Source: a bacterium (GTDB lineage Bacteria; Zhuqueibacterota; QNDG01; JAGLOF01). From it: a DNA stretch of 64,000 nt. The notes beneath the pieces are model-generated. The model was given only the letters and a program-made list of their open reading frames with translations. It was not told the origin of the DNA and ran no database searches. The stretch covers positions 61,503-125,502 of the forward strand of contig JAFGRY010000049.1 of assembly GCA_016934955.1 (NCBI GenBank), given 5' to 3'. Below are positions 1 to 41,182 of this stretch, piece by piece. A program made the translations under genes and the position numbers. Positions within the stretch are counted from its first letter, which is position 1, and each line of letters starts with the position of its first letter.

Positions 1-1622
1 TCCAGACGTACTACGTCGGGGGCATGCAGGACTATCTCTGGAACCGCATGCAGAGGACCAATTTGTCCTATCTGATCTGGACCCATGCGCTCAATCCCAG
101 AACGTACTATGAAATCAGTTTTAACGATTTCTATTCCAATTATCATTACGCTACCCCTGATATGGAGGACCGGGACGGTGACGGCAATACGGAAGAGGAC
201 CTGGTCTGGGACATCAATAAAGACGGTCCCCATCCTATCTACCGCGAACAGGAGAGCAACTACTGGTGGGTGCGCGGCGATGATCCCGGATACCGCGATC
301 AGCAATCGTGGACAAGAAGCCTGCAGGCCGATCTGGTCACCCAGGCCACGGCGAACCATCTTCTCAAGACCGGACTTGAACTGTTTATAAACCGGACCAA
401 AACGGAAAATATCAGCTGGACCCTGAATCTGACATCCCTGCGGAAGGATATCTGGGATCAGCAGAATATGGATCTCGGCATATTCGTACAGGATAAGATC
501 GAGTTCGAGGGCATCAGCGCACTGGTCGGATTGCGATTCGACACCTTCAATCCCAACGGCTTCGATAACGCCGCCTATTTTCCCGGGGATTATCATTATC
601 CGTATGAGCAGGTCGATGAAAACGATGTGCCCGTCCTGCTTCATAAACAGAAGGCGAAGAGCAAGTATCAGCTGAGTCCGCGTCTCGGTATTTCCCATCC
701 CATTACCGACCGTGATATTCTCCATTTCACTTACGGGCACTATTTTCAGCGGCCCGACGCCTACTTCCTCTATCGCAATTACAAGATACAGTCACTCACA
801 AAAGTCGGCAATTTTGTGGGTAATCCAGATTTGAAGCCCGAAAAGACGGTTGCGTACGAAGTGGGGTATGAGCATCTCATCACCGATGATATAAAAGCCA
901 CGGTCACCGGATACTACAAAGACGTCACCAATCTCATGAACTGGCGGAAGTATGTGGCCCGCAGCATTCAGGACCGGGAGCTCAACGTCTACACCAACGC
1001 GGATTATGGCAACATCAAGGGATTGGAGTTTACCCTTACCCGGCGCATCGGCCGATACTGGGGCGCCCAGGCCAATTACACCTTTTCGGTCGCCAAGGGA
1101 AGGAGTTCCAGTTACAACGGCGGTTCCGGCTCTTTCACCGATGCAAAGAGAATGAATATTCTCGATCATGACCAGACACATACGGTGAATGCCAACCTGA
1201 CGCTGCAGACGCCTTCTGATTTCGGTCCGCGGCTGGGAAGCGTCAAACCGCTGGCAGACTGGATCATGAATGTCCAGTTCGAATACGGCAGCGGCCTGCC
1301 CTACTCCTCCTACGGCACCGGTAAAATCAATGACAAACGCATGCCCTGGACAAGCACTACCGATCTGAAGCTGATCAGAAAAATATCGGTGGCCAATTTG
1401 ACGTTTGAACTGTTCTTCGACGTATACAATCTGTTCGACCGGAAGAATGTCTGGTGGATCGGGAATACCCAGTACTACGATCAGGGTGATCCGAACGACC
1501 CGACGATCAAAGGTGATCCCTCTGTTGTGAGAAGGGACAATATCACCGGTGATTACGTCCGTAACCCGACGGTGTTTTCCTATGCCCGCCAGTTCCGTTT
1601 CGGCATGGCAGTGAAGCTGTAG
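1..1622 (+). CDS. TonB-dependent outer-membrane receptor, C-terminal beta-barrel portion (5' end lies outside the window)
   Basis: The in-frame ORF runs from the window edge to a stop at 1620-1622. Beta-barrel strand pattern (NPDLKPEKTVAYEVGYEH, alternating aromatic/hydrophilic residues) and a C-terminal ...FRFGMAVKL typical of TonB-dependent receptors. No start codon inside the window. Confidence 0.75.
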   Translation, partial: QTYYVGGMQDYLWNRMQRTNLSYLIWTHALNPRTYYEISFNDFYSNYHYATPDMEDRDGDGNTEEDLVWDINKDGPHPIYREQESNYWWVRGDDPGYRDQQSWTRSLQADLVTQATANHLLKTGLELFINRTKTENISWTLNLTSLRKDIWDQQNMDLGIFVQDKIEFEGISALVGLRFDTFNPNGFDNAAYFPGDYHYPYEQVDENDVPVLLHKQKAKSKYQLSPRLGISHPITDRDILHFTYGHYFQRPDAYFLYRNYKIQSLTKVGNFVGNPDLKPEKTVAYEVGYEHLITDDIKATVTGYYKDVTNLMNWRKYVARSIQDRELNVYTNADYGNIKGLEFTLTRRIGRYWGAQANYTFSVAKGRSSSYNGGSGSFTDAKRMNILDHDQTHTVNANLTLQTPSDFGPRLGSVKPLADWIMNVQFEYGSGLPYSSYGTGKINDKRMPWTSTTDLKLIRKISVANLTFELFFDVYNLFDRKNVWWIGNTQYYDQGDPNDPTIKGDPSVVRRDNITGDYVRNPTVFSYARQFRFGMAVKL

Positions 1623-1655
1623 TGCTCATCGTTCTTCCCTAGTAGGAGGTTTTAC

Positions 1656-3647
1656 ATGAAATCATTTAGAATAATTACACGCCGGGTATCCATCCTGCTG
1701 ATTGTCAATATGCTTGCCATACCGCTTTACAGTGCGGATCCGCCGGGTAAAAAAGTGAAGCAGGCGAAGGTAAGCCGGCAATCCGACGGTCCGATCGTTG
1801 AGACCAATGTCAAATGGCATAAAATCGGCACTCTCTGGCAGCGGCTCACAAATTACGGAAAACATGGCGACGACGCCTACGAAAACCGTACCCCTTCATG
1901 CGACTGGCCGGGGGGCTCTGGTAATTCCTATCTCTATAGAGGTTCACTGTGGCTCACTGCTGAAGTGGATGGCGAGTACCATTCCTCGATGGTCGAGGAT
2001 GCGGAATTCTCTCCTCTCGATTCAGTGCATGTCATCACCGGAGAAGATGCTGTTTCCGAGGAGGATACCTACACACGCTACTATGACGTCAAGGCTCCGG
2101 AAGCGAATGATCATACACCCCTGGGACTGGAAGTGACCGAGCGTACCTACGCCTGGAGTGAAAGCTTTCGCGATGATTTTATCATCTATGAATACACCAT
2201 CAAGAATGTAGGAATCGATACGGATGACGACGGGTATCCGGACATGCAGCGCGACCTGAATAATTTTTATTTCACGTTCCGTATGGACGGTGATGTGAGC
2301 AAGCTTCCCAACTGGGCCGCCGAGTCCAAGTTCTCCAACCAGGATGATCTCGGCTGCTGCAACGCGAACTGGGACTGGATCGATCTTTTCCCGATTTGGC
2401 AGGGCGTCGATCACGGTCTCTCCGATGCAGACGCCGACAGCTCCATGATGTTCATGTGGGATGGCGATAATCCCTACTATCCGGCCGATAACGGCGAAGA
2501 CGATGATACCGGAAATCCCGGCCCGGACGGCACGCTGCAGACACCCGGGTTCCTCGGGTACAGGATCCTGAAAACAGAACCCGCTTCTTTCAAAGTGAGC
2601 TCGTTTCATCAAAATCATATCTACAATGATCCCGCAACCGACAAGGAAGCGTACGAGCGGATGATGAAACCGGAAGTGTTTGAAGGGCCGGTTCTCCAGG
2701 CGGGCATTCCATTCCCGTACGATTACCGTGCCATTCTCTCCGTGGGGCCCCTGGCGACACTGGCGGCAGGTGATTCAGTCGTCGTTACAGCGGCAATCGG
2801 TGTGGGGTGCGATCCCGTGCATGGAAAGTTGGAGAGCCTCAAGGAACTCGTCCGGATAATGAATGTCGCCAAAACGCTCGTAGATGCCGACTATCAGCTG
2901 GAAAACCTGGCGGCGCCGGCTCCCGGACTCGAAGTTACCGAACACGTTGTCGAGGGAGTAGGGCAGGGAGTGGAAGTGATCTGGGACAATGTGCCGGAAC
3001 AGCACGGCAATTTCCAGGGGTACAGGGTATGGAAGAGCGCTGATAAAACCGCTTCAGGAGCGTTCGACTGGCAGCCGCTGGGCCTGGGTTCCTATTTTGA
3101 CACCACCGGCAGCGTCTCCTGGCCGCCTCCTTCGTCAGGGATTCCCGGGTATTACCGGATTATCGATACCGATGTGATAAACGGATTTGAATATCAATAT
3201 TCAGTGCAAACCGTCAGTTACGACGAGACATTCGGCACCATGGAGAGCAATGTGCTTACAAACCTCGTATCCATTTCTCCCGCGAACCCGGTGGCAACCG
3301 ACCTCGACAATATAAAAGTCGTTCCCAATCCGTATATCGGCAGCGCGGCCTGGAACAATCCGATCCCCAGCGATGCCGATGCCTGGGAACACCGGATCCA
3401 ATTCACCAATCTCCCTGCCGATGCTTCGATTAAAATATTCACGCTGGACGGCGATCTGGTTGATGAAATTGTCTCCGGCGAAATAGCCAAGAAGAGCACT
3501 TCATTCGTCAGCGAAGGCAGTGCCAGTGTCGCCGAGTGGGATCTGATAACGAGAAATGATCAGGATGCGGCACCGGGGATATATATCTATGTCGTTGAAT
3601 CCCCTTCCGCAGGGACCAAGGTCGGTAAATTCGTTATCGTTCGCTAA
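1656..3647 (+). CDS. Secreted protein of unknown function with an FN3-like module and a T9SS C-terminal sorting domain
   Basis: Strong RBS AGGAGG 7 nt upstream of ATG. N-terminal signal peptide (MKSFRIITRRVSILLIVNMLAIPLYSA). C-terminal ~90 aa (VVPNPYIG...IKIFTLDGDLV...GIYIYVVESPSAGTKVGKFVIVR) matches the T9SS type-A CTD pattern. 33-nt gap from the upstream TBDR. Confidence 0.7.
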   Translation: MKSFRIITRRVSILLIVNMLAIPLYSADPPGKKVKQAKVSRQSDGPIVETNVKWHKIGTLWQRLTNYGKHGDDAYENRTPSCDWPGGSGNSYLYRGSLWLTAEVDGEYHSSMVEDAEFSPLDSVHVITGEDAVSEEDTYTRYYDVKAPEANDHTPLGLEVTERTYAWSESFRDDFIIYEYTIKNVGIDTDDDGYPDMQRDLNNFYFTFRMDGDVSKLPNWAAESKFSNQDDLGCCNANWDWIDLFPIWQGVDHGLSDADADSSMMFMWDGDNPYYPADNGEDDDTGNPGPDGTLQTPGFLGYRILKTEPASFKVSSFHQNHIYNDPATDKEAYERMMKPEVFEGPVLQAGIPFPYDYRAILSVGPLATLAAGDSVVVTAAIGVGCDPVHGKLESLKELVRIMNVAKTLVDADYQLENLAAPAPGLEVTEHVVEGVGQGVEVIWDNVPEQHGNFQGYRVWKSADKTASGAFDWQPLGLGSYFDTTGSVSWPPPSSGIPGYYRIIDTDVINGFEYQYSVQTVSYDETFGTMESNVLTNLVSISPANPVATDLDNIKVVPNPYIGSAAWNNPIPSDADAWEHRIQFTNLPADASIKIFTLDGDLVDEIVSGEIAKKSTSFVSEGSASVAEWDLITRNDQDAAPGIYIYVVESPSAGTKVGKFVIVR

Positions 3648-3658
3648 AATCGAGGGAT

Positions 3659-4663
3659 ATGACAATGAATAAATACATACTTTATCTTGCAATTGTCGCT
3701 GCACTGCTGGCCGCCAATCCTCTATATACCCAGGATTTCGCTCCGGTCGGCACTGCCGTTGCCCAGTTTCTTGAAATCGGCACGGGCGCCCGGGGTACGA
3801 GTATGGGAGAGGCGTTCACCGCTATTCCCAGCAATCCCGATGCCGGCTCGGTGTTCTGGAATCCGGCCGGGCTCGCCGATATCCGGAAGCGGAACCTGTA
3901 TACGTCATATACCAAATGGCCGGCGGATATATCCATTGGAAGCATTGCCTTTGCCCTGAACAGCGGCAATACCGGCACCTTTGCCGTCAGCGCCGTCTAT
4001 CTCATGACCGATGACATGGAAATTACCACGCTTCAGCAGCCTGAAGGGACCGGGGAGATGTTCAGCATTTCCAATTATGCGCTGGGATTATCCTATGCCC
4101 GTCGTCTCACCGACAGGTTTTCCTTCGGCATATCCGCCAAACTTGTGCACGAACAGTACCTGTCCTACGGTTACTCGACCTGGGCCATGGATATCGGCAC
4201 CCTCTACAGCACCGGGTTCCATGGACTGAAAATCGGCATGTCCATACTTCACTTTGCGCCGGAAGTGCAATTCAACGGAAAATATATCGATTACAGTGAT
4301 CCCCTTTCGATCGATGCCGATAAACCGAAAACGTTCGAAACCTATTCTCTGCCGATTAATTTCCGTTTCGGCATCAGTCTGGACCTACTGCGCAATGGAT
4401 ACCATTCTCTTGTCCTGGCCGCGGATATGGTTCATCCCAATAACAATCTTGAACAGTACAATACAGGTATGGAATACTGTTTCGACAACCGGTTCTTTCT
4501 GCGGGCCGGATATCAGCTCGATGACAATGAAGGAGGGGTGGCCGTCGGCGCGGGCACTATGCTTGCCGTTCCCGGCAACAGGACACTCGCTCTTGACTAC
4601 GCCTTTGCGGATAAAGGAATCCTGACATCGGCGCACCGGGTTTCATTTTCCTTCTTCTTCTAA
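3659..4663 (+). CDS. PorV/PorQ-family outer-membrane beta-barrel protein (T9SS shuttle-like)
   Basis: Signal peptide. N-terminal motif FAPVGTAVAQFLEIGTGARGTSMGEAFTAIPSNPDAGSVFWNPAGLADI is the hallmark PorV/PorQ (LptO) family signature. C-terminus ends in aromatic FFF as in OM barrels. 11 nt from the upstream gene and 9 nt to the downstream gene. Confidence 0.7.
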   Translation: MTMNKYILYLAIVAALLAANPLYTQDFAPVGTAVAQFLEIGTGARGTSMGEAFTAIPSNPDAGSVFWNPAGLADIRKRNLYTSYTKWPADISIGSIAFALNSGNTGTFAVSAVYLMTDDMEITTLQQPEGTGEMFSISNYALGLSYARRLTDRFSFGISAKLVHEQYLSYGYSTWAMDIGTLYSTGFHGLKIGMSILHFAPEVQFNGKYIDYSDPLSIDADKPKTFETYSLPINFRFGISLDLLRNGYHSLVLAADMVHPNNNLEQYNTGMEYCFDNRFFLRAGYQLDDNEGGVAVGAGTMLAVPGNRTLALDYAFADKGILTSAHRVSFSFFF

Positions 4664-4672
4664 CAGGCGGTC

Positions 4673-5998
4673 ATGGCGGCACAGCTGAAAAAACTTATTC
4701 ACAGAAGTGTTTTCTGTATTCTTTTCTGGGTGAACGGCGGCGGCGCGCAAACCGTCGCTTTGCGGCCGGAAATACAGTCCATGGTCGAGCTGGTCTCGGC
4801 TGACAGTCTGCACCGGCACGTCGAGATTCTCAGCCGGGCCGGAGGCTACGAGAGCCGGATCACGTTCACGAACGGCAACTACGCCGCAGCAGCGTATATC
4901 GCCGGCTGTTTCGAATCGATGCCCGGAATGACCCGGGTGGTGAGAGATACATTTTTTATCAATAGCGCGAACAGTCCCTGGAATGCGTATCCTATCATCA
5001 ATATTATCGGGATTAAAGAAGGTGATAGTGCTTCGGAGCAGATAATTCTCCTGGGCGGGCATTATGACAGCTCCTGCAGCCATGAATCCGATTACGGCAA
5101 TCAATGGAATACACGCAAGGCGCGGGGTGCGGACGACAATGCCTCGGGAGTTGCCGCGACGCTGGAGATTGCCCGGCTGCTCTGCGATCCTTCCAGCGGA
5201 TATCGTAATGAAGCGACACTGAAATTTATCGCGTTCGCCTCGGAGGAGAGTCATCCTGAGATCCCGAATATCAGCCATGCAGGCAGTTTATATGACGCCT
5301 ATCATATGAAAAACGGCAACGAACAGCTTTCCGCCGCTCTTATCCTGGATATGATCGCGTATAATCACGTGACGGATTATATCGAAGTGATCTCCAATGA
5401 CGCCTCCCTCGATCTGGCGAACCGGACACGCCTGGCCCGCGATCTCTATGTACCCGGGCTGACGATGAATAGCGGTCCGATAGACGTGCCGTACAGTGAT
5501 CACGAATCCTATCGGATATACGGCTTTCAATCCGCTCTTTTAATGGAGAACGACAGACCCTGGAACAACGATTCTCCCTGGTATGAGCTGAATCCCTATT
5601 ATCACTCGAGCAGCGACAGCCTCGGCACACTGAATTTTACCCTGATGAAAAAAGTGACCCAGACAGCCCTGGCCACCGTGGCGGAACTCGCGGCGCCGGA
5701 ATCTTCTCCATCCGTCACCGAGATGAATGCTGAGTCTCACGGGGAAGCATATGGTGCTTATCCCAATCCCTTCAATGCCCGGACAACGATCCGGGTTGAT
5801 CTCGAAACAGCCGCTTTTGTGAACGTTGCTATCTTCAATTCACGGGGGCAGGAGGTTGCCGCTGTGTGGGACGGGAGACTCGACAAGGGACCGCACGATC
5901 TGCCCTGGAACGCGGACCGGATGCCTGCGGGTCTGTACTTCTGCAGGATCATCTCAGGGGTCCGGAACGTCGTGTTGAAACTCGCACTTGTAAAGTAA
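4673..5998 (+). CDS. M28-family zinc aminopeptidase with T9SS C-terminal sorting domain
   Basis: Signal peptide. M28 motifs GGHYDS, DDNASGVAATLEIARLL and FIAFASEE (metal ligands). C-terminal GAYPNPFNARTTIRVDL...GLYFCRIISGVRNVVLKLALVK is a T9SS CTD. Confidence 0.85.
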   Translation: MAAQLKKLIHRSVFCILFWVNGGGAQTVALRPEIQSMVELVSADSLHRHVEILSRAGGYESRITFTNGNYAAAAYIAGCFESMPGMTRVVRDTFFINSANSPWNAYPIINIIGIKEGDSASEQIILLGGHYDSSCSHESDYGNQWNTRKARGADDNASGVAATLEIARLLCDPSSGYRNEATLKFIAFASEESHPEIPNISHAGSLYDAYHMKNGNEQLSAALILDMIAYNHVTDYIEVISNDASLDLANRTRLARDLYVPGLTMNSGPIDVPYSDHESYRIYGFQSALLMENDRPWNNDSPWYELNPYYHSSSDSLGTLNFTLMKKVTQTALATVAELAAPESSPSVTEMNAESHGEAYGAYPNPFNARTTIRVDLETAAFVNVAIFNSRGQEVAAVWDGRLDKGPHDLPWNADRMPAGLYFCRIISGVRNVVLKLALVK

Positions 5999-6077
5999 AT
6001 GACTAGATAAAAACAAGGAGGGCGCATACGTTAAAACCGTGGTATCGAAACGACCATCTAACCGAAGGGAGAACAAC

Positions 6078-7751
6078 ATGAAAAGAAACGTTACTATCAT
6101 TGCAGCGGCGATGCTCTGCCTGTTCGTTTTCGCCGGTCTGCAGGCACAGACCTTTACACGTTCACTTGTCATTCCGCCTCCTGAACCAACGCTGAACAAC
6201 GGCGGAATCGGTGATATGATCGCCGGTGTCGATCTGGACAACGACGGTCTGCTCGAGATCTACCTGGTGAACGACAACTGGAACGACACTCCCAGTGAAG
6301 TGATTCCCCGTATCTACAAACTGGAACAGACAGCTGCAGACAACTATACCGACTGGCCCATTGTCTGGCAGGGCGCTCCGCCGGTAGCAATGCAGAACAC
6401 CTGGCCGCCCCTGGCGGTCGCCGACCTCGATGGCGACGGCAAACAGGAGATCGTCTGGGGCATCGTCAATAACACGGGAGTCGAGGCCAATCCCTACCGG
6501 ATCGTTGTCTATGAAGTGGCCGGCGACGGATCCGACAATCTCGGTGTCGATGTGGGCGGCGGTGTCTTCGGCCCCAATGCCAAGTGGACGATCACCGATC
6601 AGGATGGAATGAATATTCGTACATCGGATATCGATATCGCCGATCCGGACGGCGATGGTGTCGCTGAAATTTGTTTTTCCGACCGGACCGGCAACACAGA
6701 CGGTGTTTACTTCGGCGTTATTTCCGTTGACGATATTCCTGACAACGGGGACGGATCCGAAACCTGGACCATGGAGGTCAGCGGCTGGGACTACGGCGAT
6801 CTGGCCTCCGAACCCATCGAAAACAAATGGGATGTGTCAGTGATCGGCCACAATATGTACACCTTTTGTGAGGTCGAAATCTCCAAGCTTGCCTGGGACG
6901 GCGCCGCCTGGTCCTATACCGCCCTGAATCCGCTGGCCGGCGGCAGCACATTTCTCTCTTCCCAGGTGGCCGATCTTGACTTTGACGGCACCGAAGAAAT
7001 TATCGCCGGCGTGTACGACTGGGGTGATGATGCGCAGAAGGGGATCGTTCTTCTTCAGGAAGACGGCGACGACCTGGTGCATACACCGCTGGTAAATGTG
7101 TTGAGTTATTTTCCCGGTGGATCCCGCGGCCTGCTGGGAAGCGCCCAGGGCGATATCGACAATGACGGCTATCTCGATTTTATTTTCGGAGCAAGAGCCG
7201 CGACACCGAACGGCGCTATTTTTATGCTTTCCTATAAAGGGGGAGACATCACCGATCCAGCCAGTTATACATTTGCCGTAATCGACTCGAATTATGCCGA
7301 GGATGGTATCTGGAACGTCGTCCAGGTCGCCAATGTCGATGGTGATGATGAACTGGAAGTGCTCTACACTTCGAGCACCGATGCCGGTGTCTTCCCGAAC
7401 AAAGGCACGCAGGGCGTTATCGTACTTGATTACAATCCCGGTACCGGAGTATTCGACAAGCGTGTCCTTGTCCTCGGATACAGCCTGAACCAGAATTATC
7501 CGAATCCGTTCAACCCGACCACGACCATCTCCTACACGATCCCCGCGAATGAATTCGTCACCCTGAAGATTTATAATATTATGGGTCAGGAGATAAAGAC
7601 GCTGGTGAACGGTATACAGCCCGCAGGTGTCAATGAAGTACAGTGGGACGGAACGAATGATTTGGAACAGCAGGTTGCTTCCGGCACCTATATCACCTGG
7701 ATGAATGCCGGAAACCAGATAAAAACGAGAACCATCACTCTGATGAAGTGA
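6078..7751 (+). CDS. FG-GAP/VCBS repeat protein with T9SS C-terminal sorting domain
   Basis: Start chosen at the ATG after RBS AAGGGAGAA (MKRNVTIIAAAMLCLFVFAGLQAQT signal peptide); the track ORF begins 39 nt earlier without an RBS. Repeated DxDxDGxxE calcium-binding FG-GAP motifs (DLDNDGLLEIY, DLDGDGKQEIVW, DPDGDGVAEICF, DLDFDGTEEII, DIDNDGYLDFIF, NVDGDDELEVLY). C-terminal NQNYPNPFNPTTTISYTIP...TITLMK is a T9SS CTD. Confidence 0.85.
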   Translation: MKRNVTIIAAAMLCLFVFAGLQAQTFTRSLVIPPPEPTLNNGGIGDMIAGVDLDNDGLLEIYLVNDNWNDTPSEVIPRIYKLEQTAADNYTDWPIVWQGAPPVAMQNTWPPLAVADLDGDGKQEIVWGIVNNTGVEANPYRIVVYEVAGDGSDNLGVDVGGGVFGPNAKWTITDQDGMNIRTSDIDIADPDGDGVAEICFSDRTGNTDGVYFGVISVDDIPDNGDGSETWTMEVSGWDYGDLASEPIENKWDVSVIGHNMYTFCEVEISKLAWDGAAWSYTALNPLAGGSTFLSSQVADLDFDGTEEIIAGVYDWGDDAQKGIVLLQEDGDDLVHTPLVNVLSYFPGGSRGLLGSAQGDIDNDGYLDFIFGARAATPNGAIFMLSYKGGDITDPASYTFAVIDSNYAEDGIWNVVQVANVDGDDELEVLYTSSTDAGVFPNKGTQGVIVLDYNPGTGVFDKRVLVLGYSLNQNYPNPFNPTTTISYTIPANEFVTLKIYNIMGQEIKTLVNGIQPAGVNEVQWDGTNDLEQQVASGTYITWMNAGNQIKTRTITLMK

Positions 7752-7783
7752 TCCTCCAGGAATGACCGGAGCTTCCTTCGCAA

Positions 7784-7816
7784 CCCCGGTGGCCGGAGCG
7801 CCACCGGGGTTTTTTC
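7784..7816 (+). terminator. Rho-independent terminator after the T9SS cargo operon
   Basis: CCCCGGTGG-ccggagcg-CCACCGGGG hairpin followed by TTTTTT, immediately after the stop at 7751. Confidence 0.8.
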
Positions 7817-7998
7817 TATGATCATCATCTGTTCAGAGTGGAACGGGATGTAACCGATCTTTCCGGGAAAGTCTTTAGTATCTGCATGACAATTAGTCGA
7901 AAAGATCTTGATCCGCAGTGAGATACGGAATGTGTCTGTTTCTCCGGTAATCCGGCATGTGTAAAACATTCACCAAAGCAGCGTTTGACAGATCCTGC

Positions 7999-8180: not shown

Positions 8181-9473
8181 ATGAACAGAAGAGATTTCTT
8201 AAAGGACACCACTGCGTTCGCTTCGGTGGCCATTCTGCCGTCGTCGGCATGGAAACGGGTGAAACACACCCCCCTCCGGACAGCTCATATCGGTGTGGGG
8301 GGGATGATGGGAGCGGCGGACTTGAAGAGTTTTTCATCTCATCCGCTAGTTCAGGTGACAGCTTTATGTGATGTAGATACGACATTTCTGGCAGCAGCCA
8401 AAGCGTTGTATCCAAAGGCGAACGTGTTCAGGGATTATCGTAAAATGCTCGATTCCATTGGCAAAGAAATCGATGCCGTCTGTGTCTGCACCCCCGACCA
8501 CACCCACGCCCCGGCCTCGCTAATGGCCATGGAGATGGGCAAGCCGGTGTACTGCCAGAAACCCCTGACCCACCATGTCTCTGAAGCACGGGCCATGAAA
8601 AAACTGGCAGCGGATAAAAAGCTGGTTACCCAGATGGGGATTCAGTGCCATTCCAGTGATATGTACCGGCAGGCTGTCACTCTTATTCAGAACGGGCTTA
8701 TCGGCAAAGTGAGCTGCGTGAGAGCGTGGTCGCCGAAGAACTGGGGCTATGACGGTCCGGCACCGACGGGCAGTGATCCTGTCCCGGAAACGCTTGACTG
8801 GAACCTCTGGGTGGGCACTTCCCCTGAACGGCCGTACAAGCAAGGATTCTATCATCCCTATAACTGGAGAAAACTGCTCGATTACGGATGCGGCACTCTG
8901 GGAGACATGGGCGTTCATATTTTCGATACTCCCTATACCGCCTGCGGGCTGACAGTGCCCAATACCGTTAAAACCAGCTGCAGAGAGCCCAATGGATTCA
9001 GCCATCCGGAGCATAATGTCGTTGAATACGAGTTTCCGAAAACCAAATACACCACCGATAATTTTAAATGGATCTGGTATGACGGCGAAGGTGCACCGCC
9101 GGCTCATCCCGATCTGAAACTGCCGGATGATGAGCCCCTTCCCGAGCAGGGAGCCATGTTCGTGGGAGAAAAGGGAAATCTGCTGCTGCCGCACTGGGAT
9201 TTCCCCAGGCTGATTGTTGGGAATACATTCGAACCCATCGATTTCCCGGAGATTGAACCGCAGGATCATTATCACCAGTTTGTCGATGCCTGTATGGGCA
9301 GGGACACATGCAGTGCTTCCTTTGACTATGCAGCCAATCTGACCGAGGCGATTCTGCTGGGCGTGATTGCCAACCGCTTCCCGAATGAAACTCTGCACTG
9401 GGATATCGCTTCAGGCACATTTGTCGAGTCGAAAGCGAATGAACTGCTTGACTTCAGGTACCGGAAATTTTAA
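8181..9473 (+). CDS. Tat-exported Gfo/Idh/MocA-family NAD-binding oxidoreductase (GH109-like fold)
   Basis: Twin-arginine signal MNRRDFLKDTTAFASVAILPSSA. Rossmann N-terminus (RTAHIGVGGMMG) and Gfo/Idh/MocA core (DAVCVCTPDHTHAP, EKPLT). Confidence 0.75.
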   Translation: MNRRDFLKDTTAFASVAILPSSAWKRVKHTPLRTAHIGVGGMMGAADLKSFSSHPLVQVTALCDVDTTFLAAAKALYPKANVFRDYRKMLDSIGKEIDAVCVCTPDHTHAPASLMAMEMGKPVYCQKPLTHHVSEARAMKKLAADKKLVTQMGIQCHSSDMYRQAVTLIQNGLIGKVSCVRAWSPKNWGYDGPAPTGSDPVPETLDWNLWVGTSPERPYKQGFYHPYNWRKLLDYGCGTLGDMGVHIFDTPYTACGLTVPNTVKTSCREPNGFSHPEHNVVEYEFPKTKYTTDNFKWIWYDGEGAPPAHPDLKLPDDEPLPEQGAMFVGEKGNLLLPHWDFPRLIVGNTFEPIDFPEIEPQDHYHQFVDACMGRDTCSASFDYAANLTEAILLGVIANRFPNETLHWDIASGTFVESKANELLDFRYRKF

Positions 9474-9570
9474 CTCCCGACAGCGTGAGAGTGTATAGAA
9501 CACCCTGACCTGGAGGTCCGCAATACTGATACATTCGCTGCTTGAAAACATTCTTTACAGCAGAAGGGGC

Positions 9571-12420
9571 GTGTCCTGTCTGCTGCTGGTCGCCGGTCTG
9601 CTCCTGGGATCCGGGTGCAGTTCCAATACAGCTACGCCTGATTCTCCCGGAATAGCGATGATGTCGAAGGCGTTTAGCAATCCTCATGCAGACACCCGTC
9701 CCGGTGCCTTCTGGTGCTGGCTGAACGGCAATATGACCAGAGAGTCCATTTCCCGGGATCTCCGGGAGATGAGCGAAAAGGGCATGGGCAGAGCGGAGAT
9801 TTGGGATGTGGCGGCAGTGAATAATCCGGACAACTATATTCCAGCCGGTCCCGCTTTTTTGAGCGACAGTTCGGTGGCGCTGATCACATACGCCTTTGAG
9901 CAGGGGAAAAAGTACGGTATCAAAATCGGCATGATCGGCTCCAGCGGCTGGAATGCGGGGGGTACCTGGGTCGAACCTGACTGGGCCTCCAAACAGTTAT
10001 TTGTGTCCGAGCTGCGGGTTTCCGGTCCGCTCAGGGAAAATCTCCAACTGCCGTTCCCGGAAGTACCCCGCCGCTGCCCGAAGGGTGAGGACGGATACCC
10101 GGTCTTTTACAAAGAGGTGGCAGTGCTGGCTGTGCCGTTTTCCGGGGAAAAACGGCTTGATTCGACCGGCAGGATCATCGATCTGTCCGAACGTCTCGCT
10201 GGAAACTGTGTGCATGCTGAACTGCCCGAAGGAGAATGGATCATCCTGCGCTTCATCTGCTCCAACAACGGGCAGCGCCTTATTGTCCCGTCACCCGAAT
10301 CCAGCGGTCTGTTTATCGATTTTTTAGACCCGCAGTCGACCAGAAAACATCTCGGGCACATTATGGAGAGGCTCGGCATTCCCCGCGGAAAAAAGCGTAA
10401 AGGCGGTCTGGCCTATATCGAATTTGACAGTATGGAACTGGCGGCGGGGATCCCGTGGACGGACAGGATGCCGGAAATCTTTAAAAGAATGCGCGGGTAT
10501 GATCTGACCGGGTATCTGCCGGTTCTGGCCGGATGGTCCATTGGCGGCGAATCGGAGCGGTTTCTCTATGACTGGAAGAAGACCATCAGCGATCAGCTCA
10601 TATTCAGCCATTACACGACCGGAAGAGAATTCCTCAAAGCGTACGGGGTGGACCTGGTGGCGGAAGCCGGAGGACCGGGACCTCCCACCTGGGATACCTG
10701 TCCGGTTGATGCTCTGAAAGCGTTGGGAAATGTCACTGTCCCCCGGGGTGAGTTCTGGGTGCAGCACCGGAACATATTCCTGGTGAAGGAGGTGGCCAGC
10801 GCGTCGCATATATACGGTAAAAAGATCGTTGACGCCGAATCATTCACCACCTGGCGGCGGTGGAAGGACAGTCCCTTCGATCTGAAAAAACTGGCGGACA
10901 GGGCCTTCTGTGAAGGATTGAACTGTGTCACCTTCCATACATTTGCCAGCACCGCTCCCGGGGACGGTCTGCCGGGCAGAACCTACCATGCCGGGTCCGA
11001 CATCAATCACGCCAACACCTGGTGGAACAAATCAAAACCGTTCATGGATTATCTGGCCAGATGCAGTTATCTGCTCCAGCAGGGGGTGTTCGTAGCCGAT
11101 GCCTGTTACTATTACGGTGATCAGGCACCGAATTTCTGGCCGGCCTATCACTATGTTCCGAAAAAGATTATACCGGAGGATCTGGGAGAAGGCTATGATT
11201 ACGATGTGGTGAACAGCGATGTGATCCTGAACCGAATGTCGGTAAAAAACGGAAAGATTGTTCTGCCCGACGGGCTGAGCTATTCTCTGCTTGTCCTGCC
11301 GGACCAGGAGGATATCCCGCTGAGGGTGCTGAAAAAACTTGAGCGGATGGTTCAGCAGGGAGCAACAATCATCGGGCATAAACCAACAGAGATTCCCTAC
11401 CTGAATCATTATGCATCTGATCAGAAGGATCTGTCCCGACTGGCGGACACTATGTGGTACGGCGATGACGGAAACAGACAAGCGATTAATCCATTGGGGA
11501 AAGGGAGAATCATTCACGGCATTACACCGCGGGAGGTTCTTCTGTCGGATGGTATTGTCCCGGATTTCAGTTATAATCCTCAGGGAAGTCTGGACTACAT
11601 TCATCGACGGGCCGGTGATACCGACATCTATTTCATCCGCAATAAAAACCCACAGCCCTGGACCGGGGAATGCTCATTCAGGGTGAGTGACAAGTATCCA
11701 GAATTGTGGGACCCTGCCACCGGGGAGCAGGTCAGTGTCACCGCATCCAGCGAAAAGGATGGCCGGGCGCATCTGCAGCTTGAGTTTGATCCCCATGGTT
11801 CTCTGTTTGCCGTTTTTAGCGTGAACAAACGGGCGATTCCGTCCAGCTGTAAAAGTGCCACTGTAACCGAACGGGCAGCATGTACCGGGAGCTGGCAGGT
11901 GACCTTCCCTGCATGCTGGGGGGCGCCTGAAGAAACGACATTCGATACACTGATTTCCTGGACCGACCATGCCGTTCACGGGATCAGGTATTTTTCCGGC
12001 ACGGCAGCCTATCACCAAACAGTCACCATTGGGGAAGAGGAGGTACGTGATGGAACGAGGATCGAATTGGCGCTGGGTGACCTGGCGGATGTTGCGGAGG
12101 TGTTCTTCAACGGGAAATCGGCCGGCATCGTGTGGAAACCTCCATATACAGTCGATATCACGGACCTGGCGCGGGCCGGTGAGAATGAGTTGAACGTAGA
12201 GGTGGTGAATCAGTGGGTGAACCGGCTGACCGGTGATATGCAGTCGAATCCGGAAGATCGCTACTGCCGCACCAATCAGCCCTATATCACCGAAGACGAT
12301 ATGGGATATGACAACTGGGCCGAGGGCGGAGATGAGACCTTCAGGCTGAAAACATCGGGACTGCTGGGACCGGTGGTGATCCGGTTTTTAGAGTTTGATG
12401 CTCCGCGGATTGGCCGCTGA
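9571..12420 (+). CDS. Lipoprotein glycoside hydrolase, GH106-like (putative alpha-L-rhamnosidase family) with C-terminal galactose-binding-like jelly roll
   Basis: GTG start after GAAGGGG. Lipobox LLLGSGC. N-terminal RPGAFWCWLNGNMTRESISRDLREMSEKGMGRAEIWDV resembles the conserved N-terminus of the GH106/BT0986-like family. C-terminal segment (WQVTFPACWGAPEE...FFNGKSAGIVW...NVEVVNQWVNRL) resembles a sugar-binding jelly roll. Family assignment is from memory, not a search. Confidence 0.45.
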   Translation: MSCLLLVAGLLLGSGCSSNTATPDSPGIAMMSKAFSNPHADTRPGAFWCWLNGNMTRESISRDLREMSEKGMGRAEIWDVAAVNNPDNYIPAGPAFLSDSSVALITYAFEQGKKYGIKIGMIGSSGWNAGGTWVEPDWASKQLFVSELRVSGPLRENLQLPFPEVPRRCPKGEDGYPVFYKEVAVLAVPFSGEKRLDSTGRIIDLSERLAGNCVHAELPEGEWIILRFICSNNGQRLIVPSPESSGLFIDFLDPQSTRKHLGHIMERLGIPRGKKRKGGLAYIEFDSMELAAGIPWTDRMPEIFKRMRGYDLTGYLPVLAGWSIGGESERFLYDWKKTISDQLIFSHYTTGREFLKAYGVDLVAEAGGPGPPTWDTCPVDALKALGNVTVPRGEFWVQHRNIFLVKEVASASHIYGKKIVDAESFTTWRRWKDSPFDLKKLADRAFCEGLNCVTFHTFASTAPGDGLPGRTYHAGSDINHANTWWNKSKPFMDYLARCSYLLQQGVFVADACYYYGDQAPNFWPAYHYVPKKIIPEDLGEGYDYDVVNSDVILNRMSVKNGKIVLPDGLSYSLLVLPDQEDIPLRVLKKLERMVQQGATIIGHKPTEIPYLNHYASDQKDLSRLADTMWYGDDGNRQAINPLGKGRIIHGITPREVLLSDGIVPDFSYNPQGSLDYIHRRAGDTDIYFIRNKNPQPWTGECSFRVSDKYPELWDPATGEQVSVTASSEKDGRAHLQLEFDPHGSLFAVFSVNKRAIPSSCKSATVTERAACTGSWQVTFPACWGAPEETTFDTLISWTDHAVHGIRYFSGTAAYHQTVTIGEEEVRDGTRIELALGDLADVAEVFFNGKSAGIVWKPPYTVDITDLARAGENELNVEVVNQWVNRLTGDMQSNPEDRYCRTNQPYITEDDMGYDNWAEGGDETFRLKTSGLLGPVVIRFLEFDAPRIGR

Positions 12421-12453
12421 AACAGGCAGTACCATGAAAGGGTGGGAAGAACC

Positions 12454-14910
12454 ATGAAAAAAAGAGTGCTCACGATCATCTGCGCCGTTGTCGCTGTATC
12501 CGTCGTCTATGCGCAGAAGACGGATGTCTCGAAACTGATAGACGCGCAGGCGTTCAGGCCTGAATCGATTCTCTGGTACGATACGCCCGCAGGGAAGTGG
12601 GAAGAGGCGCTGCCCGTGGGCAACGGCCGCCTGGGGGCCATGGTGTTCGGGAAACACGGTGAAGAGCGGATTCAGCTCAATGAAGAGACCCTCTGGTCAG
12701 GAGGCCCATACTCCACCGTCGTAAAGGGGGGGTACAGCGTCCTGCCGGAAATCCAGCGGCTGATCTTTGCAGGCAAACCCATCGAGGCCCATAAACTGTT
12801 CGGCCGGCATCTCATGGGGAACCCGGTGGAACAGATGAAATACCAGTGCCTGGCCAACCTGCATCTTTTTTTTGAAAACGAAAAAGAGGTGTCCGGCTAT
12901 AAGCGCTGGCTCGATCTGGGGACGGCAACGACCCATGTGGAGTACACGGCCCACGGCGTCCGTTACCGCCGGGAAGTTTTCTCATCCGCTCTCGACCAGG
13001 TGATCGCTGTCCGCCTCACGGCAGATACACCGGGAATGGTCTCCTTCCGGGCCCAGCTGAGGGGCGTACGCAACACCGCCCATTCCAACTACGGCAACGA
13101 CTACTTCCGCATGGACGGCATGGGCGATGACGGCGTCATGGTCAACGGCAAGTCCGCCGACTACCTGGGCGTAGAGGGGAAGCTGCGCTACCGGGCGCAG
13201 CTCAGGGCCGTCCCCGAGGGAGGAAGCATGGAGGTAGTCGGGGATGAACTCTTCATTGAAGGTGCCGATGCCGTCACCCTCTACCTTACGGCGGCCACCA
13301 ATTTTATGAATTATCGGGATGTGAGCGGTGATCAGGTTGCCCGGGTGGAGGAAACATTCGACGCTATCAAGGGGAAATCTTACCAGGAGATCAGAAACGC
13401 CGCCATCGCGGATTATCGATCCTATTATGACCGGGCCTCACTGGAACTGTCAACCAGCGAAAATTCCTTTCTTCCCACGGATAAACGTATGGCGGGGCTT
13501 GAGACCGGCGCCGATCCCAACCTGGCGGCGCTGGCCTATAATTTCGGACGCTATCTGCTGATCAGTTCCTCCCGGCCCGGAACCCAGCCGGCCAACCTGC
13601 AGGGCATCTGGAACGAAAGCCAGAACCCCAGCTGGGATTCCAAGTACACCACCAATATCAACACCGAGATGAACTACTGGCCCGTAGAAACCGCCAACCT
13701 GTCAGACTGTGCTGAACCGCTTATCACCATGGTGAAGGAACTGACCGATCAGGGCCGCGAGGTGGCCAGGGAGCACTACGGAGCCTCCGGCTGGGTGTTT
13801 CATCAGAACACCGATCTCTGGCGGGTCGCTGCCCCCATGGACGGACCCACCTGGGGGACCTTTACCGTGGGCGGTGCCTGGCTCACCACCCATTTATGGG
13901 AACACTATCTTTACACCCTCGATACGGAGTACCTTGAAGAGATCTATCCGGTGATCAAGGGGTGTGTGGATTTCTTCATGGATTTCCTGGTTGAACATCC
14001 AAACGGCACATGGCTGGTGACCAATCCCTCGAATTCACCGGAAAATCCACCCAAAGGCCCCGGCTATCACTATTTCTTCGATGAAGTGCCCGCCTTCTGG
14101 TATTTCACCACCATCTGTTACGGGGCCACCATGGACATGCAGATCCTGACCGATCTTTTCGGTTACTACGCCGAGGCCAGTGCAATTCTCGATCGGGACA
14201 GGGACTATGCGAAACAGGTGCTGGCCGCCCGGGCCCGCCTGGTGCCGCCCCTGATCGGAAAGGACGGCACCCTGCAGGAGTGGACCGAGGATTACGAACA
14301 GCTGGAGGAGAAGCACCGGCACTTCTCCCACATGTATGGTCTCTACCCGGGTAATGTCATTTCCGCCAAACGCACCCCGGAACTGGTTAACGCCTGCAAG
14401 GCGGTGCTGGAGCAGCGGGGAGACGGGGGAACGGGGTTTTCCCGGGGCTGGAAAATGGCGCTCTGGGCCCGTCTCTATGACGGTGAGCGCGCCTGCCGGA
14501 TCTTCAAAGGCTATATCAGGGACCAGGCCTACCCGCAGCTCTTCGCCAAATGCTACACGCCCCTGCAGGTGGACGGCACCTTTGGCGTAACCGCAGGCAT
14601 CACGGAAATGCTGATGCAGTCCCACGAAGGCGTGATCGATCTGCTGCCGGCGCTCCCGGAGAACTGGAGCGACGGACGGTTTGACGGTGTCTGTGCCAGG
14701 GGCGCGTTTGAACTAGATATTGAGTGGAAAGCCGGTGTGGTATCCAGAGTGACTGTCCTCTCGAAAAAGGGGGAGACCTGCCGGATCAATCCGCGGGTGA
14801 CGGTTGAGATAATGTCGGACGGACAGTGGATCAGAAGCAAAAAATATAAAGACGGCTCTGTTGAGTTCAAGACAAAAGCAGGAGCAACATATACACTCGT
14901 ACAGAAATAA
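12454..14910 (+). CDS. Glycoside hydrolase family 95 (alpha-L-fucosidase-like)
   Basis: Start at the ATG giving signal peptide MKKRVLTIICAVVAVSVVYAQ; the track ORF starts at a GTG 12 nt upstream. N-terminal ILWYDTPAGKWEEALPVGNGRLGAMVFG...RIQLNEETLWSGGP is the GH95 N-domain signature. Length ~820 aa fits GH95. Confidence 0.85.
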   Translation: MKKRVLTIICAVVAVSVVYAQKTDVSKLIDAQAFRPESILWYDTPAGKWEEALPVGNGRLGAMVFGKHGEERIQLNEETLWSGGPYSTVVKGGYSVLPEIQRLIFAGKPIEAHKLFGRHLMGNPVEQMKYQCLANLHLFFENEKEVSGYKRWLDLGTATTHVEYTAHGVRYRREVFSSALDQVIAVRLTADTPGMVSFRAQLRGVRNTAHSNYGNDYFRMDGMGDDGVMVNGKSADYLGVEGKLRYRAQLRAVPEGGSMEVVGDELFIEGADAVTLYLTAATNFMNYRDVSGDQVARVEETFDAIKGKSYQEIRNAAIADYRSYYDRASLELSTSENSFLPTDKRMAGLETGADPNLAALAYNFGRYLLISSSRPGTQPANLQGIWNESQNPSWDSKYTTNINTEMNYWPVETANLSDCAEPLITMVKELTDQGREVAREHYGASGWVFHQNTDLWRVAAPMDGPTWGTFTVGGAWLTTHLWEHYLYTLDTEYLEEIYPVIKGCVDFFMDFLVEHPNGTWLVTNPSNSPENPPKGPGYHYFFDEVPAFWYFTTICYGATMDMQILTDLFGYYAEASAILDRDRDYAKQVLAARARLVPPLIGKDGTLQEWTEDYEQLEEKHRHFSHMYGLYPGNVISAKRTPELVNACKAVLEQRGDGGTGFSRGWKMALWARLYDGERACRIFKGYIRDQAYPQLFAKCYTPLQVDGTFGVTAGITEMLMQSHEGVIDLLPALPENWSDGRFDGVCARGAFELDIEWKAGVVSRVTVLSKKGETCRINPRVTVEIMSDGQWIRSKKYKDGSVEFKTKAGATYTLVQK

Positions 14911-14937
14911 CCTGAAGGAGAGTCAGGAGCCGTCCCC

Positions 14938-16467
14938 ATGTATCATTCCCGCAGAGAATTTTTAACATTACTGGCAGCTTCAGGCATAACCGCAGCTGTC
15001 CCGAATTTTCTCTCCTGCAGCGGTCTGCTCTTTGCCGGGAAACGGCCTAATATAATTATCTTCCTTGGTGATGATCTGGGCTACGGAGATCTGGGGTGTT
15101 ATGGAAATCCGATTATCAAAACACCCCATATTGATGCCTTTGCCAAAGAGGGTGTCCGCTTTACTGATTGCCATGCAGCCGGAACGGTCTGTTCGCCGTC
15201 CCGGGCCGGGCTGCTCACCGGCCGTAATCCATACCGGTCGGGATTTTACTATATAGCCGACAGCGGCGCCTGGCTGCGGACCGAAGAAAAAACGATCGCC
15301 TCCCTTCTCAGGGAAAGCGGCTACGACACCTGTTATGCGGGAAAATGGCACCTGAGCCACTTTAACCGGGACGACAGTCAGCCGGATCCCGGAGATCACG
15401 GCTTCGACCACTGGTTCGCCACTCCCGTGAATGCCTTTGAAGGCCCTGACCACCCGACTACCTTTGTCCGCAACGGCGTCAGGGTGCCGGAAGTGGACGG
15501 CTGGTACTGTGATGCCGTTGTAAGGGAGTCGCTGGAGTGGCTGCGGAACCGGCCCGATCCGGAAAAGCCGTTCTTCCTTGTTGTAGCCACTCACGAGCCG
15601 CACACGCCGCTCGCGCCGCCGGAGCACTACGCCGCCATGTACGACAATCAGGAAACCGATGAGCTGGAAAAGCGGATTCGCTACGGGGGAGTGGTGCGTC
15701 CGGACCGGGAGATCGGTCTGAATAAAAAATACTACTACGGCACGGTTTCACAGCTGGACGCGGCTTTCGGTAACCTGATGCGGGGTCTCGATGATCTCCG
15801 GCTCGCCGGTAATTCCCTGGTCTTTTTTACCAGTGATAACGGACCTGAGAGTCCGGTAAATATGCAGGAGTCCAAGGGTGAGTGGGACGATCCCATTCGG
15901 GACAGATGCTTCGGAACACCTGGTCAGCTGCGCGGCATGAAGCGCTTTACCTATGAAGGAGGGCACCGTATCCCCGGCATCCTGCGCTGGCCGGGCCGGG
16001 TCCGGCCGGGTAGTGTATGCGGCACCCTTGTCAATGGCACGGATATTCTGCCGACCGTGTGCGAGGCGGCCTCCATTCAGCCGCCCCGGGACAGGACCAT
16101 TGACGGCACGAGCATTCTCCCTCTCTTCTCCGGAAAACAACTGCAGCGGGACATTCCCCAGTGCTGGTTCTTTCCGGCCTATGAAGATGCCATGGGGTAC
16201 ATCCCCCAGATGGCGATGCGGATCGGCTCCTATACACTGCTGGGATGGTTTGACGGGAAGAGACCGGGTGAGCGCTATATGGACTGGCTGAAGCGGGCGC
16301 AGCTGATCTCCTTTGAGCTGTATAATGTCAATGCGGATGAAGCGCAGCAGAAGGATATATCGGCAGACTGTCCTGAGATCCTGAACAGGCTGATCCCCCG
16401 CATGAGAGAGTTGTGGAAGGATATACAGAAGGAAGGACCCTGTCATAACAAGTGGACGGCACATTAA
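14938..16467 (+). CDS. Tat-exported Cys-type sulfatase (arylsulfatase family)
   Basis: RBS AGGAG. Tat motif SRREFLTLLAAS. Sulfatase signature NIIIFLGDDLGYGDLGCYGN and formylglycine motif CSPSRAGLLTGR. Confidence 0.9.
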   Translation: MYHSRREFLTLLAASGITAAVPNFLSCSGLLFAGKRPNIIIFLGDDLGYGDLGCYGNPIIKTPHIDAFAKEGVRFTDCHAAGTVCSPSRAGLLTGRNPYRSGFYYIADSGAWLRTEEKTIASLLRESGYDTCYAGKWHLSHFNRDDSQPDPGDHGFDHWFATPVNAFEGPDHPTTFVRNGVRVPEVDGWYCDAVVRESLEWLRNRPDPEKPFFLVVATHEPHTPLAPPEHYAAMYDNQETDELEKRIRYGGVVRPDREIGLNKKYYYGTVSQLDAAFGNLMRGLDDLRLAGNSLVFFTSDNGPESPVNMQESKGEWDDPIRDRCFGTPGQLRGMKRFTYEGGHRIPGILRWPGRVRPGSVCGTLVNGTDILPTVCEAASIQPPRDRTIDGTSILPLFSGKQLQRDIPQCWFFPAYEDAMGYIPQMAMRIGSYTLLGWFDGKRPGERYMDWLKRAQLISFELYNVNADEAQQKDISADCPEILNRLIPRMRELWKDIQKEGPCHNKWTAH

Positions 16468-16705
16468 GGTATTTATTTGTGATGTTATTGTAAGGGAGGG
16501 TAATCCATAATTCGATGTTATTCATTCCAGGGCGGGAATTAACTGCCAAACCTTCAGTCCTGCTTGGGACAATTGTTATAACAGAGTGGATTTTAAAACA
16601 TCCCACATAATATAAATTATCTTGCATCATGTATTGAAAATTGATATGTTAAAAATACTATACTAATTTTAACGAGATGTATTCATCACAAAAGGAGTAC
16701 TTCTT

Positions 16706-20696: not shown

Positions 20697-20722
20697 GATC
20701 CTAAACAAGGGAGAGTGAGACA

Positions 20723-41134: not shown

Positions 41135-41182
41135 GAAAAGAGGACGGAAATGGAAGAATAACCCTTGTTGCAAGGAGACACC

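Follow-up and report, generated by a model that had tools for sequence, protein, structure and literature searches.

What does an outer-membrane barrel of the PorV/PorQ family do when its gene lies between those of a TonB-dependent receptor and of secreted proteins? The question is raised by a stretch of 64,000 nucleotides (nt), hereafter the window, from a bacterium of the Genome Taxonomy Database lineage Bacteria; Zhuqueibacterota; QNDG01; JAGLOF01 (assembly GCA_016934955.1, contig JAFGRY010000049.1, positions 61,503-125,502, forward strand). Its left 7.8 kb consists of five tightly spaced open reading frames (ORFs) on the plus strand, which encode in order the receptor, a secreted protein that we call P663, the barrel, an M28 aminopeptidase and an FG-GAP protein (Table 1). 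PorV-family barrels are usually seen as parts of the Bacteroidota type IX secretion system, with PorV as the general shuttle and PorQ as the holder of PorZ. The initial annotation of the window took the five genes for an operon in which such a barrel forms a dedicated module with three cargo proteins bearing type-A sorting domains. We found that the unit is composed of the receptor, P663 and the barrel, usually together with the FG-GAP protein, and not of three cargoes and a barrel.

Invariant order of the receptor, P663 and barrel genes

When one genome per species was scanned, at least 229 of them, from uncultured bacteria of sediments and the sea, were found to encode a relative of P663, and the best 79 loci were fetched. 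The order TonB-dependent receptor, P663, barrel is invariant in these 79 species-level loci, which come from KSB1, Calditrichota and Marinimicrobia/Fidelibacterota. The barrel gene lies directly 3' of the P663 gene in 71/71 eligible loci and the receptor gene directly 5' of it in 71 of 73, the two misses being attributed to alignment overlap at the gene junction. P663 and the barrel are separated by a median gap of 18 nt (range -4 to 93, n = 77). The arrangement is far beyond chance, and the core formed by the trio is ancient and fixed. Since the flanking genes differ among genomes, the module is self-contained. What had looked like a peculiarity of this genome is therefore a conserved module of several phyla with, as described below, many paralogous versions.

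The operon proposed in the initial annotation is real: the five genes are close-packed on the plus strand and end at a strong terminator. From 5' to 3', the intergenic gaps measure 33, 11, 9 and 40 nt; the last widens to 79 nt with ATG 6078, the start used in the public gene call and likely to be the true one, as the first codon of the FG-GAP gene. The terminator, whose hairpin and U-run lie at 7782-7811, begins 31 nt past the last stop codon and has a free energy of -25.8 kcal/mol (z = -3.4), and none of 200 shuffled sequences folds equally well. Terminator-like sites as a class are not enriched across the region (8 observed vs 7.9 from shuffles), and only this one is strong.

The first gene was correctly identified as a TonB-dependent receptor, its barrel domain matching PF00593 at 1.8e-28. 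Orthologues are about 950-965 residues long and carry CarboxypepD_reg, Plug and barrel domains; the first two were seen only in full-length orthologues (e.g., L007:7071-9968), the window copy being partial. We considered the receptor as a member of the SusC/RagA group and rejected this, as the orthologue L007:7071-9968 scores 51.3 bits on TIGR04056 vs a cut-off of 368, with a match that covers the N-terminal domain only.

The remaining two genes are less constant. Of 44 eligible loci, 36 have the FG-GAP gene downstream of the barrel in the same orientation, and three have it on the opposite strand. The M28 gene stands between the barrel and the FG-GAP gene, besides the window, in only eight fetched loci (L006, L009, L021, L025, L027, L032, L056 and L065), mostly labelled Calditrichota. 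Synteny thus rules out the M28 protein as a core member, since it is missing from most orthologous loci.

Table 1. Features of the operon at the left end of the window (window coordinates).
Feature	Position	Strand	Remarks
TonB-dependent receptor, C-terminal 539 codons	(1)-1622	+	PF00593; gene start beyond window edge
P663, secreted 663-residue protein	1656-3647	+	Without Pfam/NCBIfam family; AlphaFold2 domains
Extended C-terminal tail domain of P663, residues 554-663	3315-3644	+	Seven-strand sandwich; predicted barrel-docking element
Outer-membrane barrel, 334 residues, PorV/PorQ family	3659-4663	+	NF033709; predicted cognate anchor of the P663 tail
M28 aminopeptidase	4673-5998	+	PF04389, 77.2 bits; type-A sorting domain, residues 363-436; optional accessory gene
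FG-GAP beta-propeller protein	6039-7751	+	PF13517, PF13860, TIGR04183; type-A/FlgD_ig-type sorting domain; frequent fourth member
Intrinsic terminator	7782-7817	+	Operon end; 12-bp stem with 9 G-C pairs, then a U-run

The extended tail of P663 and the barrel beside it

P663 has no match in Pfam, and in NCBIfam it matches no family except, weakly, the PorZ C-terminus over its last 96 residues (22 bits). Its homologues in KSB1, Marinimicrobia and Caldithrix are 53-79% identical and are all named 'hypothetical'. Residues 1-27 form a signal peptide of the signal-peptidase-I type without a lipobox cysteine; with no lipoprotein signal and no SusD/RagB match in Pfam, P663 is not SusD-like. The public annotation of a 100%-identical protein (P0121, 645 residues) starts 18 codons later than position 1656. 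This later start would cost most of the signal peptide, whereas ATG 1656 gives a normal signal and agrees with the orthologues.

An AlphaFold2 model of P663 built with 62 homologues (predicted local distance difference test [pLDDT] 83.4) has three domains: a beta-supersandwich (about residues 50-412), an FN3-like sandwich (about 420-532) and the C-terminal sandwich (554-661). In Foldseek searches, the first weakly matched the N-terminal supersandwich of the glycoside hydrolase families GH94, GH65 and GH116 (E about 1e-5, template-modelling [TM] score 0.28), the second matched the FN3 domains of cytokine receptors, and PorZ ranked eighth. The FN3 domain of the initial annotation is thus seen as a beta-sandwich (residues 425-530) in the structure model, but no sequence model detects it. 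The mean frequency of the top residue is 0.77 in the tail, 0.73 in the supersandwich and 0.56 in the FN3-like domain. By this measure the tail ranks first among the P663 domains, and 32 of the last 107 residues are invariant.

This tail differs from the known classes of sorting domain. Neither the type-A models (TIGR04183/PF18962, E <= 0.01) nor the type-B models (TIGR04131/PF13585) matched P663 of the window or any of 62 orthologues; the sole NCBIfam match of the tail is the PorZ C-terminus, in 27 of the 62, and a sequence search against solved structures gave no meaningful match. Aligned with the tails of the M28 and FG-GAP proteins, it shares the core motifs PNPY, I.IF..G, W, G.Y and a terminal K. 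What sets it apart is a conserved stretch of about 18 residues inserted behind the first strand (GSAxWNNPxPSDxxPWEHRLQFxNLPxDA). The insertion (residues 561-578) has a pLDDT below 50 and yet contains six invariant residues, with two more at 579-580, a combination typical of segments that take on order when bound to a partner. The P663 tail is a distinct extended tail, derived from type A by an insertion and not of type B.

Of the three type-A sorting domains proposed initially, two therefore stand: the M28 and FG-GAP proteins pass TIGR04183 with 31.3 and 29.5 bits (cut-off 23), and the P663 tail matches no type-A model. In FG-GAP orthologues the tail is less conserved (34-50% identity) than the body (52-60%), the reverse of what is seen in P663. 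A dedicated shuttle or anchor that takes all three tailed proteins, P663, M28 and FG-GAP, from the translocon to their destination is quite unlikely in our estimation. Each of the three does start with a signal peptide, end in a beta-sandwich domain and share a transcript with the barrel, the FG-GAP gene follows the barrel in most loci, and FG-GAP genes recur beside paralogous trios. However, the M28 and FG-GAP tails are ordinary type-A tails, of the kind handled by the general PorV, which is reported to recognize all type-A tails (PMC12618676). Moreover, the M28 gene is missing from most loci, the FG-GAP gene is sometimes missing or on the opposite strand, and a one-to-one co-occurrence with the barrel holds for the extended P663-type tail only. 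The idea of a dedicated module is thus retained in part: the barrel is genetically tied to its neighbours and not to core type IX genes, but it is coupled to P663 rather than to three cargoes.

The barrel, M28 and FG-GAP genes (3659-3740, 4673-4760 and 6078-6150) encode predicted signal-peptidase-I sites with glutamine at position +1 (cleavage between A and Q). This resembles the 'Q-rule', which has been reported to hold in Bacteroidetes though not throughout the Fibrobacterota-Chlorobiota-Bacteroidota (FCB) group (PMC5837995).

The pairing of extended tail and barrel extends beyond P663. All ORFs of the fetched loci, which amount to about 1.3 Mb, were searched with a profile of the tail and with one of the barrel. 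The tail profile matched the P663 orthologues and seven larger, otherwise unrelated proteins (in L007, L016 twice, L021, L056, L066 and L081), as well as an eighth, more weakly, in L008, which the end of the locus truncates; none of the ordinary type-A tails in these 1.3 Mb was matched. Wherever the locus allows, the paralogous tail protein has a PorV-family barrel directly 3' on the same strand, and each is preceded by a TonB-dependent receptor. Three of the paralogous barrels were scored, and all pass NF033709 (195-227 bits). In L016, from Calditrichia, three PorV-family barrels lie within 22 kb.

Searching a large protein database with a profile of the paralogous tails gave 1366 proteins, among them ones named Ignavibacteriae, Melioribacteraceae, Fidelibacterota and KSB1. 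Six neighbourhoods were looked up (L085-L090, including one from Melioribacteraceae), and all six consist of a receptor, a large protein without Pfam match that ends in the tail, and a PorV/UPF0164 barrel. Overall, receptor and barrel flank the tail protein in 13/13 paralogous cases with readable flanks, one of which is from Ignavibacteriota. FG-GAP genes with sorting domains stand beside the paralogous trios of L086, L087, L089 and L090. An exhaustive phmmer search with P663 returned 2636 representatives of 50%-identity clusters at E <= 1e-3, 786 at E <= 1e-10 and 34 at E <= 1e-30; most of the listed matches are 600-1100 residues long and can be aligned with P663 at the C-terminus only. The link between the extended tail and the barrel downstream of it is exclusive in these data.

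Some paralogous trios have suggestive neighbours. In L088 (2655-16627), the trio is followed by an unknown protein of 506 residues, an ATP-binding cassette sugar transporter (SBP_bac_1 and two permeases) and two GH130 genes, so that the locus resembles a polysaccharide-utilization locus without SusD, and the trio of L087 adjoins cellulase and GH16 genes. In L081 (570-4278), the gene next after those of the tail protein and barrel encodes an N-acetylmuramoyl-L-alanine amidase that bears a type-A sorting domain. Exogenous muropeptides are required by a cultured isolate of Fidelibacterota (PMC11652737). The trio of L081 might import cell-wall fragments, and with these two leads a role of the module in muropeptide uptake is a speculation. 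Genes for SurA-like peptidyl-prolyl isomerases/chaperones adjoin the trios of two unrelated loci, L016 (14959-16359, minus strand) and L085 (388-2041, plus strand).

The barrel itself belongs to the PorV/PorQ family, as initially annotated: a hidden Markov model search gave 217.6 bits on NF033709 (E 3.1e-64, model positions 2-324 of 326) vs a cut-off of 90. It falls far below the equivalog models for PorV (NF033710, 87.5 bits vs 250), PorQ (NF033711, 90.7 vs 220) and PorV2 (NF052325, 71.6 vs 325), and is thus a member of the PorV family but neither PorV nor PorQ proper. More than 100 homologues, named KSB1, Marinimicrobia or Caldithrix, are 54-69% identical to it. The public gene call (P0001, a 100%-identical protein) starts two codons later. 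Among solved structures, its only sequence relative is PorV of Flavobacterium johnsoniae (E 7.5e-8), and the AlphaFold2 model (55 homologues, pLDDT 82.9), with 14 long strands and a helical N-terminal hatch (residues 25-77), also finds this protein first in Foldseek (8gl6_F, E 3e-14, TM 0.68; 6h3i_F, TM 0.64). FadL and TodX come next, and BamG (9hiv_F) is at rank 28.

PorV proper is linked to the PorU sortase or to core type IX genes, as in Porphyromonas gingivalis and F. johnsoniae. The 64-kb window holds a single PorV-family barrel, that of the module, and it has no linkage to PorU or SprA there. Two related loci are informative in this respect. In L012 (KSB1), at 18610-21960 on the minus strand and about 5.5 kb from the module, there is a PorU-like sortase gene (NF033707, 134.6 bits; cut by the locus end), and the gene directly after it encodes a divergent PorV-family barrel (71.6 bits on the family model; best equivalog PorV2, 61 bits); the two may be the general attachment pair of KSB1. 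L090, on an unclassified metagenome contig, encodes a true SprA/Sov translocon (12132-16622, plus strand, running off the locus; TIGR04189, 854.8 bits vs a cut-off of 200) 2.4 kb downstream of a paralogous trio. These findings indicate that trio-bearing organisms can have type IX parts and that the module barrel is not their only PorV-family protein. Judging from L012 and L016, the barrel is unlikely to be the only PorV of its genome.

Another reading is that the barrel is no more than the housekeeping PorV (or PorQ) of these phyla, which serves general type IX secretion and is encoded here by chance. The protein is highly conserved, its orthologue is apparently single-copy, its family is PorV/PorQ, and no solved structure is closer to it than PorV. 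We nevertheless hold this to be very unlikely: besides the low equivalog scores, paralogous barrels each stand beside their own extended-tail protein, as with the three of L016, the barrel that adjoins the PorU-like sortase in L012 is a different one, and the fixed linkage to a TonB-dependent receptor would be left unexplained.

With the sides of the loops assigned by the FadL/PorV topology rule, the mean top-residue frequency of the barrel is 0.75 in the predicted outer loops (which include residues 118-136, 200-232 and 261-265), 0.68 in the strands and 0.61 in the periplasmic turns. This pattern agrees with a protein-binding role. The least probable of the explanations that we considered is an independent channel of the FadL type for small hydrophobic molecules, which would share the substrate of the receptor without binding P663, the tail being an ordinary cleaved signal. 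The FadL-like fold with its N-terminal hatch and weak Pfam matches to Toluene_X and UPF0164 would suit such a channel. However, the best matches in both sequence and structure are PorV and not FadL, and the constant co-occurrence of tail and barrel, the conservation of the tail above the rest of P663 and the conserved predicted outer loops would have no explanation. For the same reason, namely the PorV matches, the barrel is not a member of an unrelated FadL-like family, the outcome that would have undone the initial annotation.

A putative uptake complex and its main rival

We suggest, giving the whole reading an even chance, that the trio is a SusCD-like uptake complex without a lipoprotein, in which the surface partner is exported by a type IX route and docked on a cognate barrel. 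The core would be a three-part uptake machine of the outer membrane, with the TonB-dependent receptor as the energized import channel and P663 as its partner at the cell surface. P663 would cross the inner membrane through Sec and the outer membrane through a type IX-type pathway, with its C-terminal domain as the signal. Its tail would stay uncleaved and dock on the barrel whose gene follows after 11 nt, with the conserved insertion of about 18 residues against the barrel's outer loops, in the manner in which PorZ is held by PorQ and PorU by PorV (PMC10202324). The barrel would thereby do the job of the lipid anchor on the SusD-type partners of Bacteroidota, and the supersandwich and FN3 domains of P663 would be kept at the mouth of the receptor for substrate capture. 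The FG-GAP propeller and, in some lineages, the M28 protein would be accessory surface proteins that travel by the ordinary type-A route. The analysis, computational throughout, shows the gene content, the folds, the synteny, the pattern of conservation and the exclusive tail-barrel link; the export route, tail retention, docking, cooperation with the receptor and the uptake role are inferred from these.

We favour this uptake complex because the gene order is invariant, the tail is the best-conserved domain and carries a disordered but conserved insertion, and tail and barrel are paired exclusively. In addition, the tail resembles the C-terminus of PorZ, a protein that keeps its tail and binds PorQ by it (PMC10202324), the predicted outer loops of the barrel are conserved, type IX parts occur in L012 and L090, and the trios of L087 and L088 stand in nutrient-related contexts.

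Several points weigh against it. We infer the contacts of P663 with the barrel and with the receptor from the genes and models described, and the retention of the tail from its conservation and a weak resemblance to PorZ (22 bits), while the inside and outside of the barrel loops follow from a topology rule. The likeness of the supersandwich to the N-domains of glycoside phosphorylases is weak (TM 0.28). The 64-kb window contains no core type IX genes (SprA/Sov, PorU, GldKLMN), and the genome paper on Caldithrix abyssi reports no gliding machinery of the Bacteroidetes type (PMC5317091). An Rfam scan of six orthologous loci and the window found no riboswitch or other RNA upstream of the receptor, the only hit being a tRNA-Val, and there is no other cue to the substrate. 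The parallel divergence of tail and barrel was also rejected as a sign of co-evolution and is not independent evidence, since neighbouring genes have a common history even when their products make no contact. Finally, the identity across phyla (53-79% for P663, 54-69% for the barrel) is unusually high for a nutrient-capture protein and could point to a housekeeping role in the envelope.

Such a role is the main rival, the other three alternatives being less consistent with the exclusive linkage of tail and barrel. The trio would then be a complex for envelope biogenesis or structure, for instance of a surface layer or in outer-membrane assembly, in which the barrel holds a surface protein as BamG holds BamH in the beta-barrel assembly machine (BAM) of Bacteroidota. 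All three core proteins are very highly conserved across phyla and the orthologue is apparently single-copy; the lack of a substrate cue and the SurA-like chaperone genes beside two paralogous trios fit as well. There is also the precedent of a FadL-like barrel that binds a surface protein (PMC12578637), and BamG is among the structural matches of the barrel. On the other hand, the Plug and 22-strand-type barrel domains of the receptor are those standard for TonB-dependent importers, some paralogous trios lie in glycan-utilization loci, and no BAM or Lpt genes are linked. We consider an envelope role unlikely on balance.

The wider proposal that KSB1, Calditrichota, Fidelibacterota and Ignavibacteriota, phyla of the FCB group outside Bacteroidota, share a general, hitherto undescribed and lipoprotein-free design for nutrient uptake at the cell surface, made of a receptor, an extended-tail protein and a private barrel that tethers this protein non-covalently, is one that we put forward tentatively, as somewhat short of an even chance. 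If it is true, the design would hold hundreds of sequence families and PorV-like barrels would be widespread anchors of surface proteins, with the P663 trio as its most conserved member, near-universal in three phyla.

Flanking genes, known systems and implications

The terminator divides the module from a glycan-degradation cluster at window positions 8181-23158, which encodes a GFO/glycoside-3-dehydrogenase-like oxidoreductase, GH106, GH95, two sulfatases and a GH78 rhamnosidase. This content suggests the use of a sulfated fucose/rhamnose polysaccharide; the cluster is not kept beside the module in other genomes. Within it, at 16001-20000, the G+C content falls to 0.43-0.49 vs 0.53-0.61 in the surroundings. 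The dip coincides with an ORF of 801 residues (16706-19111) whose sole match is a spermidine-synthase-like domain, and the segment may be a foreign insertion. Further downstream, a right-handed beta-helix protein (25352-27007, pectate-lyase-like) with a C-terminal sorting domain of the FlgD_ig type is the fourth protein of the window with a sorting-type tail. The stretch 41165-63950, which has no bearing on the module but can help to place the organism, holds housekeeping genes (tsf, pyrH, frr, glycerate kinase, proS, RNase Y, pheST, thrS and ftsZ), with an unannotated ORF of 268 residues (41165-41971) ahead of tsf/pyrH/frr and the tRNA-Val gene at 62572-62646 on the minus strand. A protein of 1137 residues at 44927-48340, preceded by an NHL-repeat protein, has only weak local matches, to SprA and DUF2460; it was rejected as SprA with 23.5 bits vs a cut-off of 200.

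Among known systems, the proposed complex can be compared with four. In PorZ-PorQ, a secreted protein keeps its C-terminal domain and docks on a 14-strand barrel of the PorV family (PMC10202324), as is predicted here; PorZ has the only curated model that the P663 tail resembles, and the barrels fall in the same NCBIfam family. However, the barrel described here is below the PorQ and PorV equivalog cut-offs, P663 has a supersandwich and an FN3-like domain instead of the beta-propellers of PorZ, and the P663 pair is adjacent, co-transcribed and fixed to a TonB-dependent receptor, in phyla outside Bacteroidota. The type-B cargoes with their PorP/SprF barrels, such as SprB/SprF of F. johnsoniae, likewise link a special class of tail genetically to its own barrel, which sets the secretion and final location of the cargo (PMC12618676). 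In contrast to that system, our barrel is of the PorV/PorQ family, the P663 tail has no TIGR04131 or CHU_C match, and the cargoes there are adhesins without a TonB-dependent receptor.

The Bacteroidota complexes of a TonB-dependent receptor and a surface lipoprotein of the SusC/SusD type (RagAB, BtuB-BtuG) share with the trio a large TonB-dependent receptor with a CarboxypepD_reg-type domain immediately 5' of the surface partner, and several paralogous versions per genome, some of them in glycan-utilization loci. They differ in that the receptor here is not SusC/RagA, P663 is neither SusD-like nor provided with a lipobox, and its anchoring is proposed to depend on a third gene, that of the PorV-family barrel. 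In BamG-BamH, a FadL/PorV-like barrel binds a surface protein by its extracellular loops (PMC12578637), but it belongs to BAM with BamA and BamD; no BAM genes are linked to the trio, and the sequence family is different.

A cognate barrel beside its cargo is thus established for type-B tails with PorP/SprF (PMC12618676), and has also been proposed for PorZ/PorQ (PMC10202324). We found no description of the trio in Pfam, in NCBIfam (June 2026 release) or in the full-text literature, and no account in the latter of type IX secretion in KSB1, Calditrichota or Marinimicrobia. Four things therefore appear to be undescribed: the P663 family, the use of PorV/PorQ-family barrels as partners private to a distinct extended tail, the fixed coupling of these barrels to TonB-dependent receptors, and their spread over several phyla outside Bacteroidota. 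The two unannotated families defined here, the 663-residue protein and the extended C-terminal domain, could become profile models. It has been hypothesized in a review that cognate PorV-like barrels shield C-terminal domains from cleavage (PMC10202324), and the P663-barrel pair offers a concrete case for this hypothesis.

If the proposed reading is true, the PorV family would have given rise to many private anchors, each coupled to its TonB-dependent receptor, which would explain how complexes of a receptor and a surface-exposed partner can exist outside Bacteroidota where SusD-type lipoproteins take no part. Sediments and the dark ocean harbour KSB1, Calditrichota and Marinimicrobia in abundance, most of them uncultured. 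A near-universal module of their outer membrane would give a direct handle on uptake by these bacteria.

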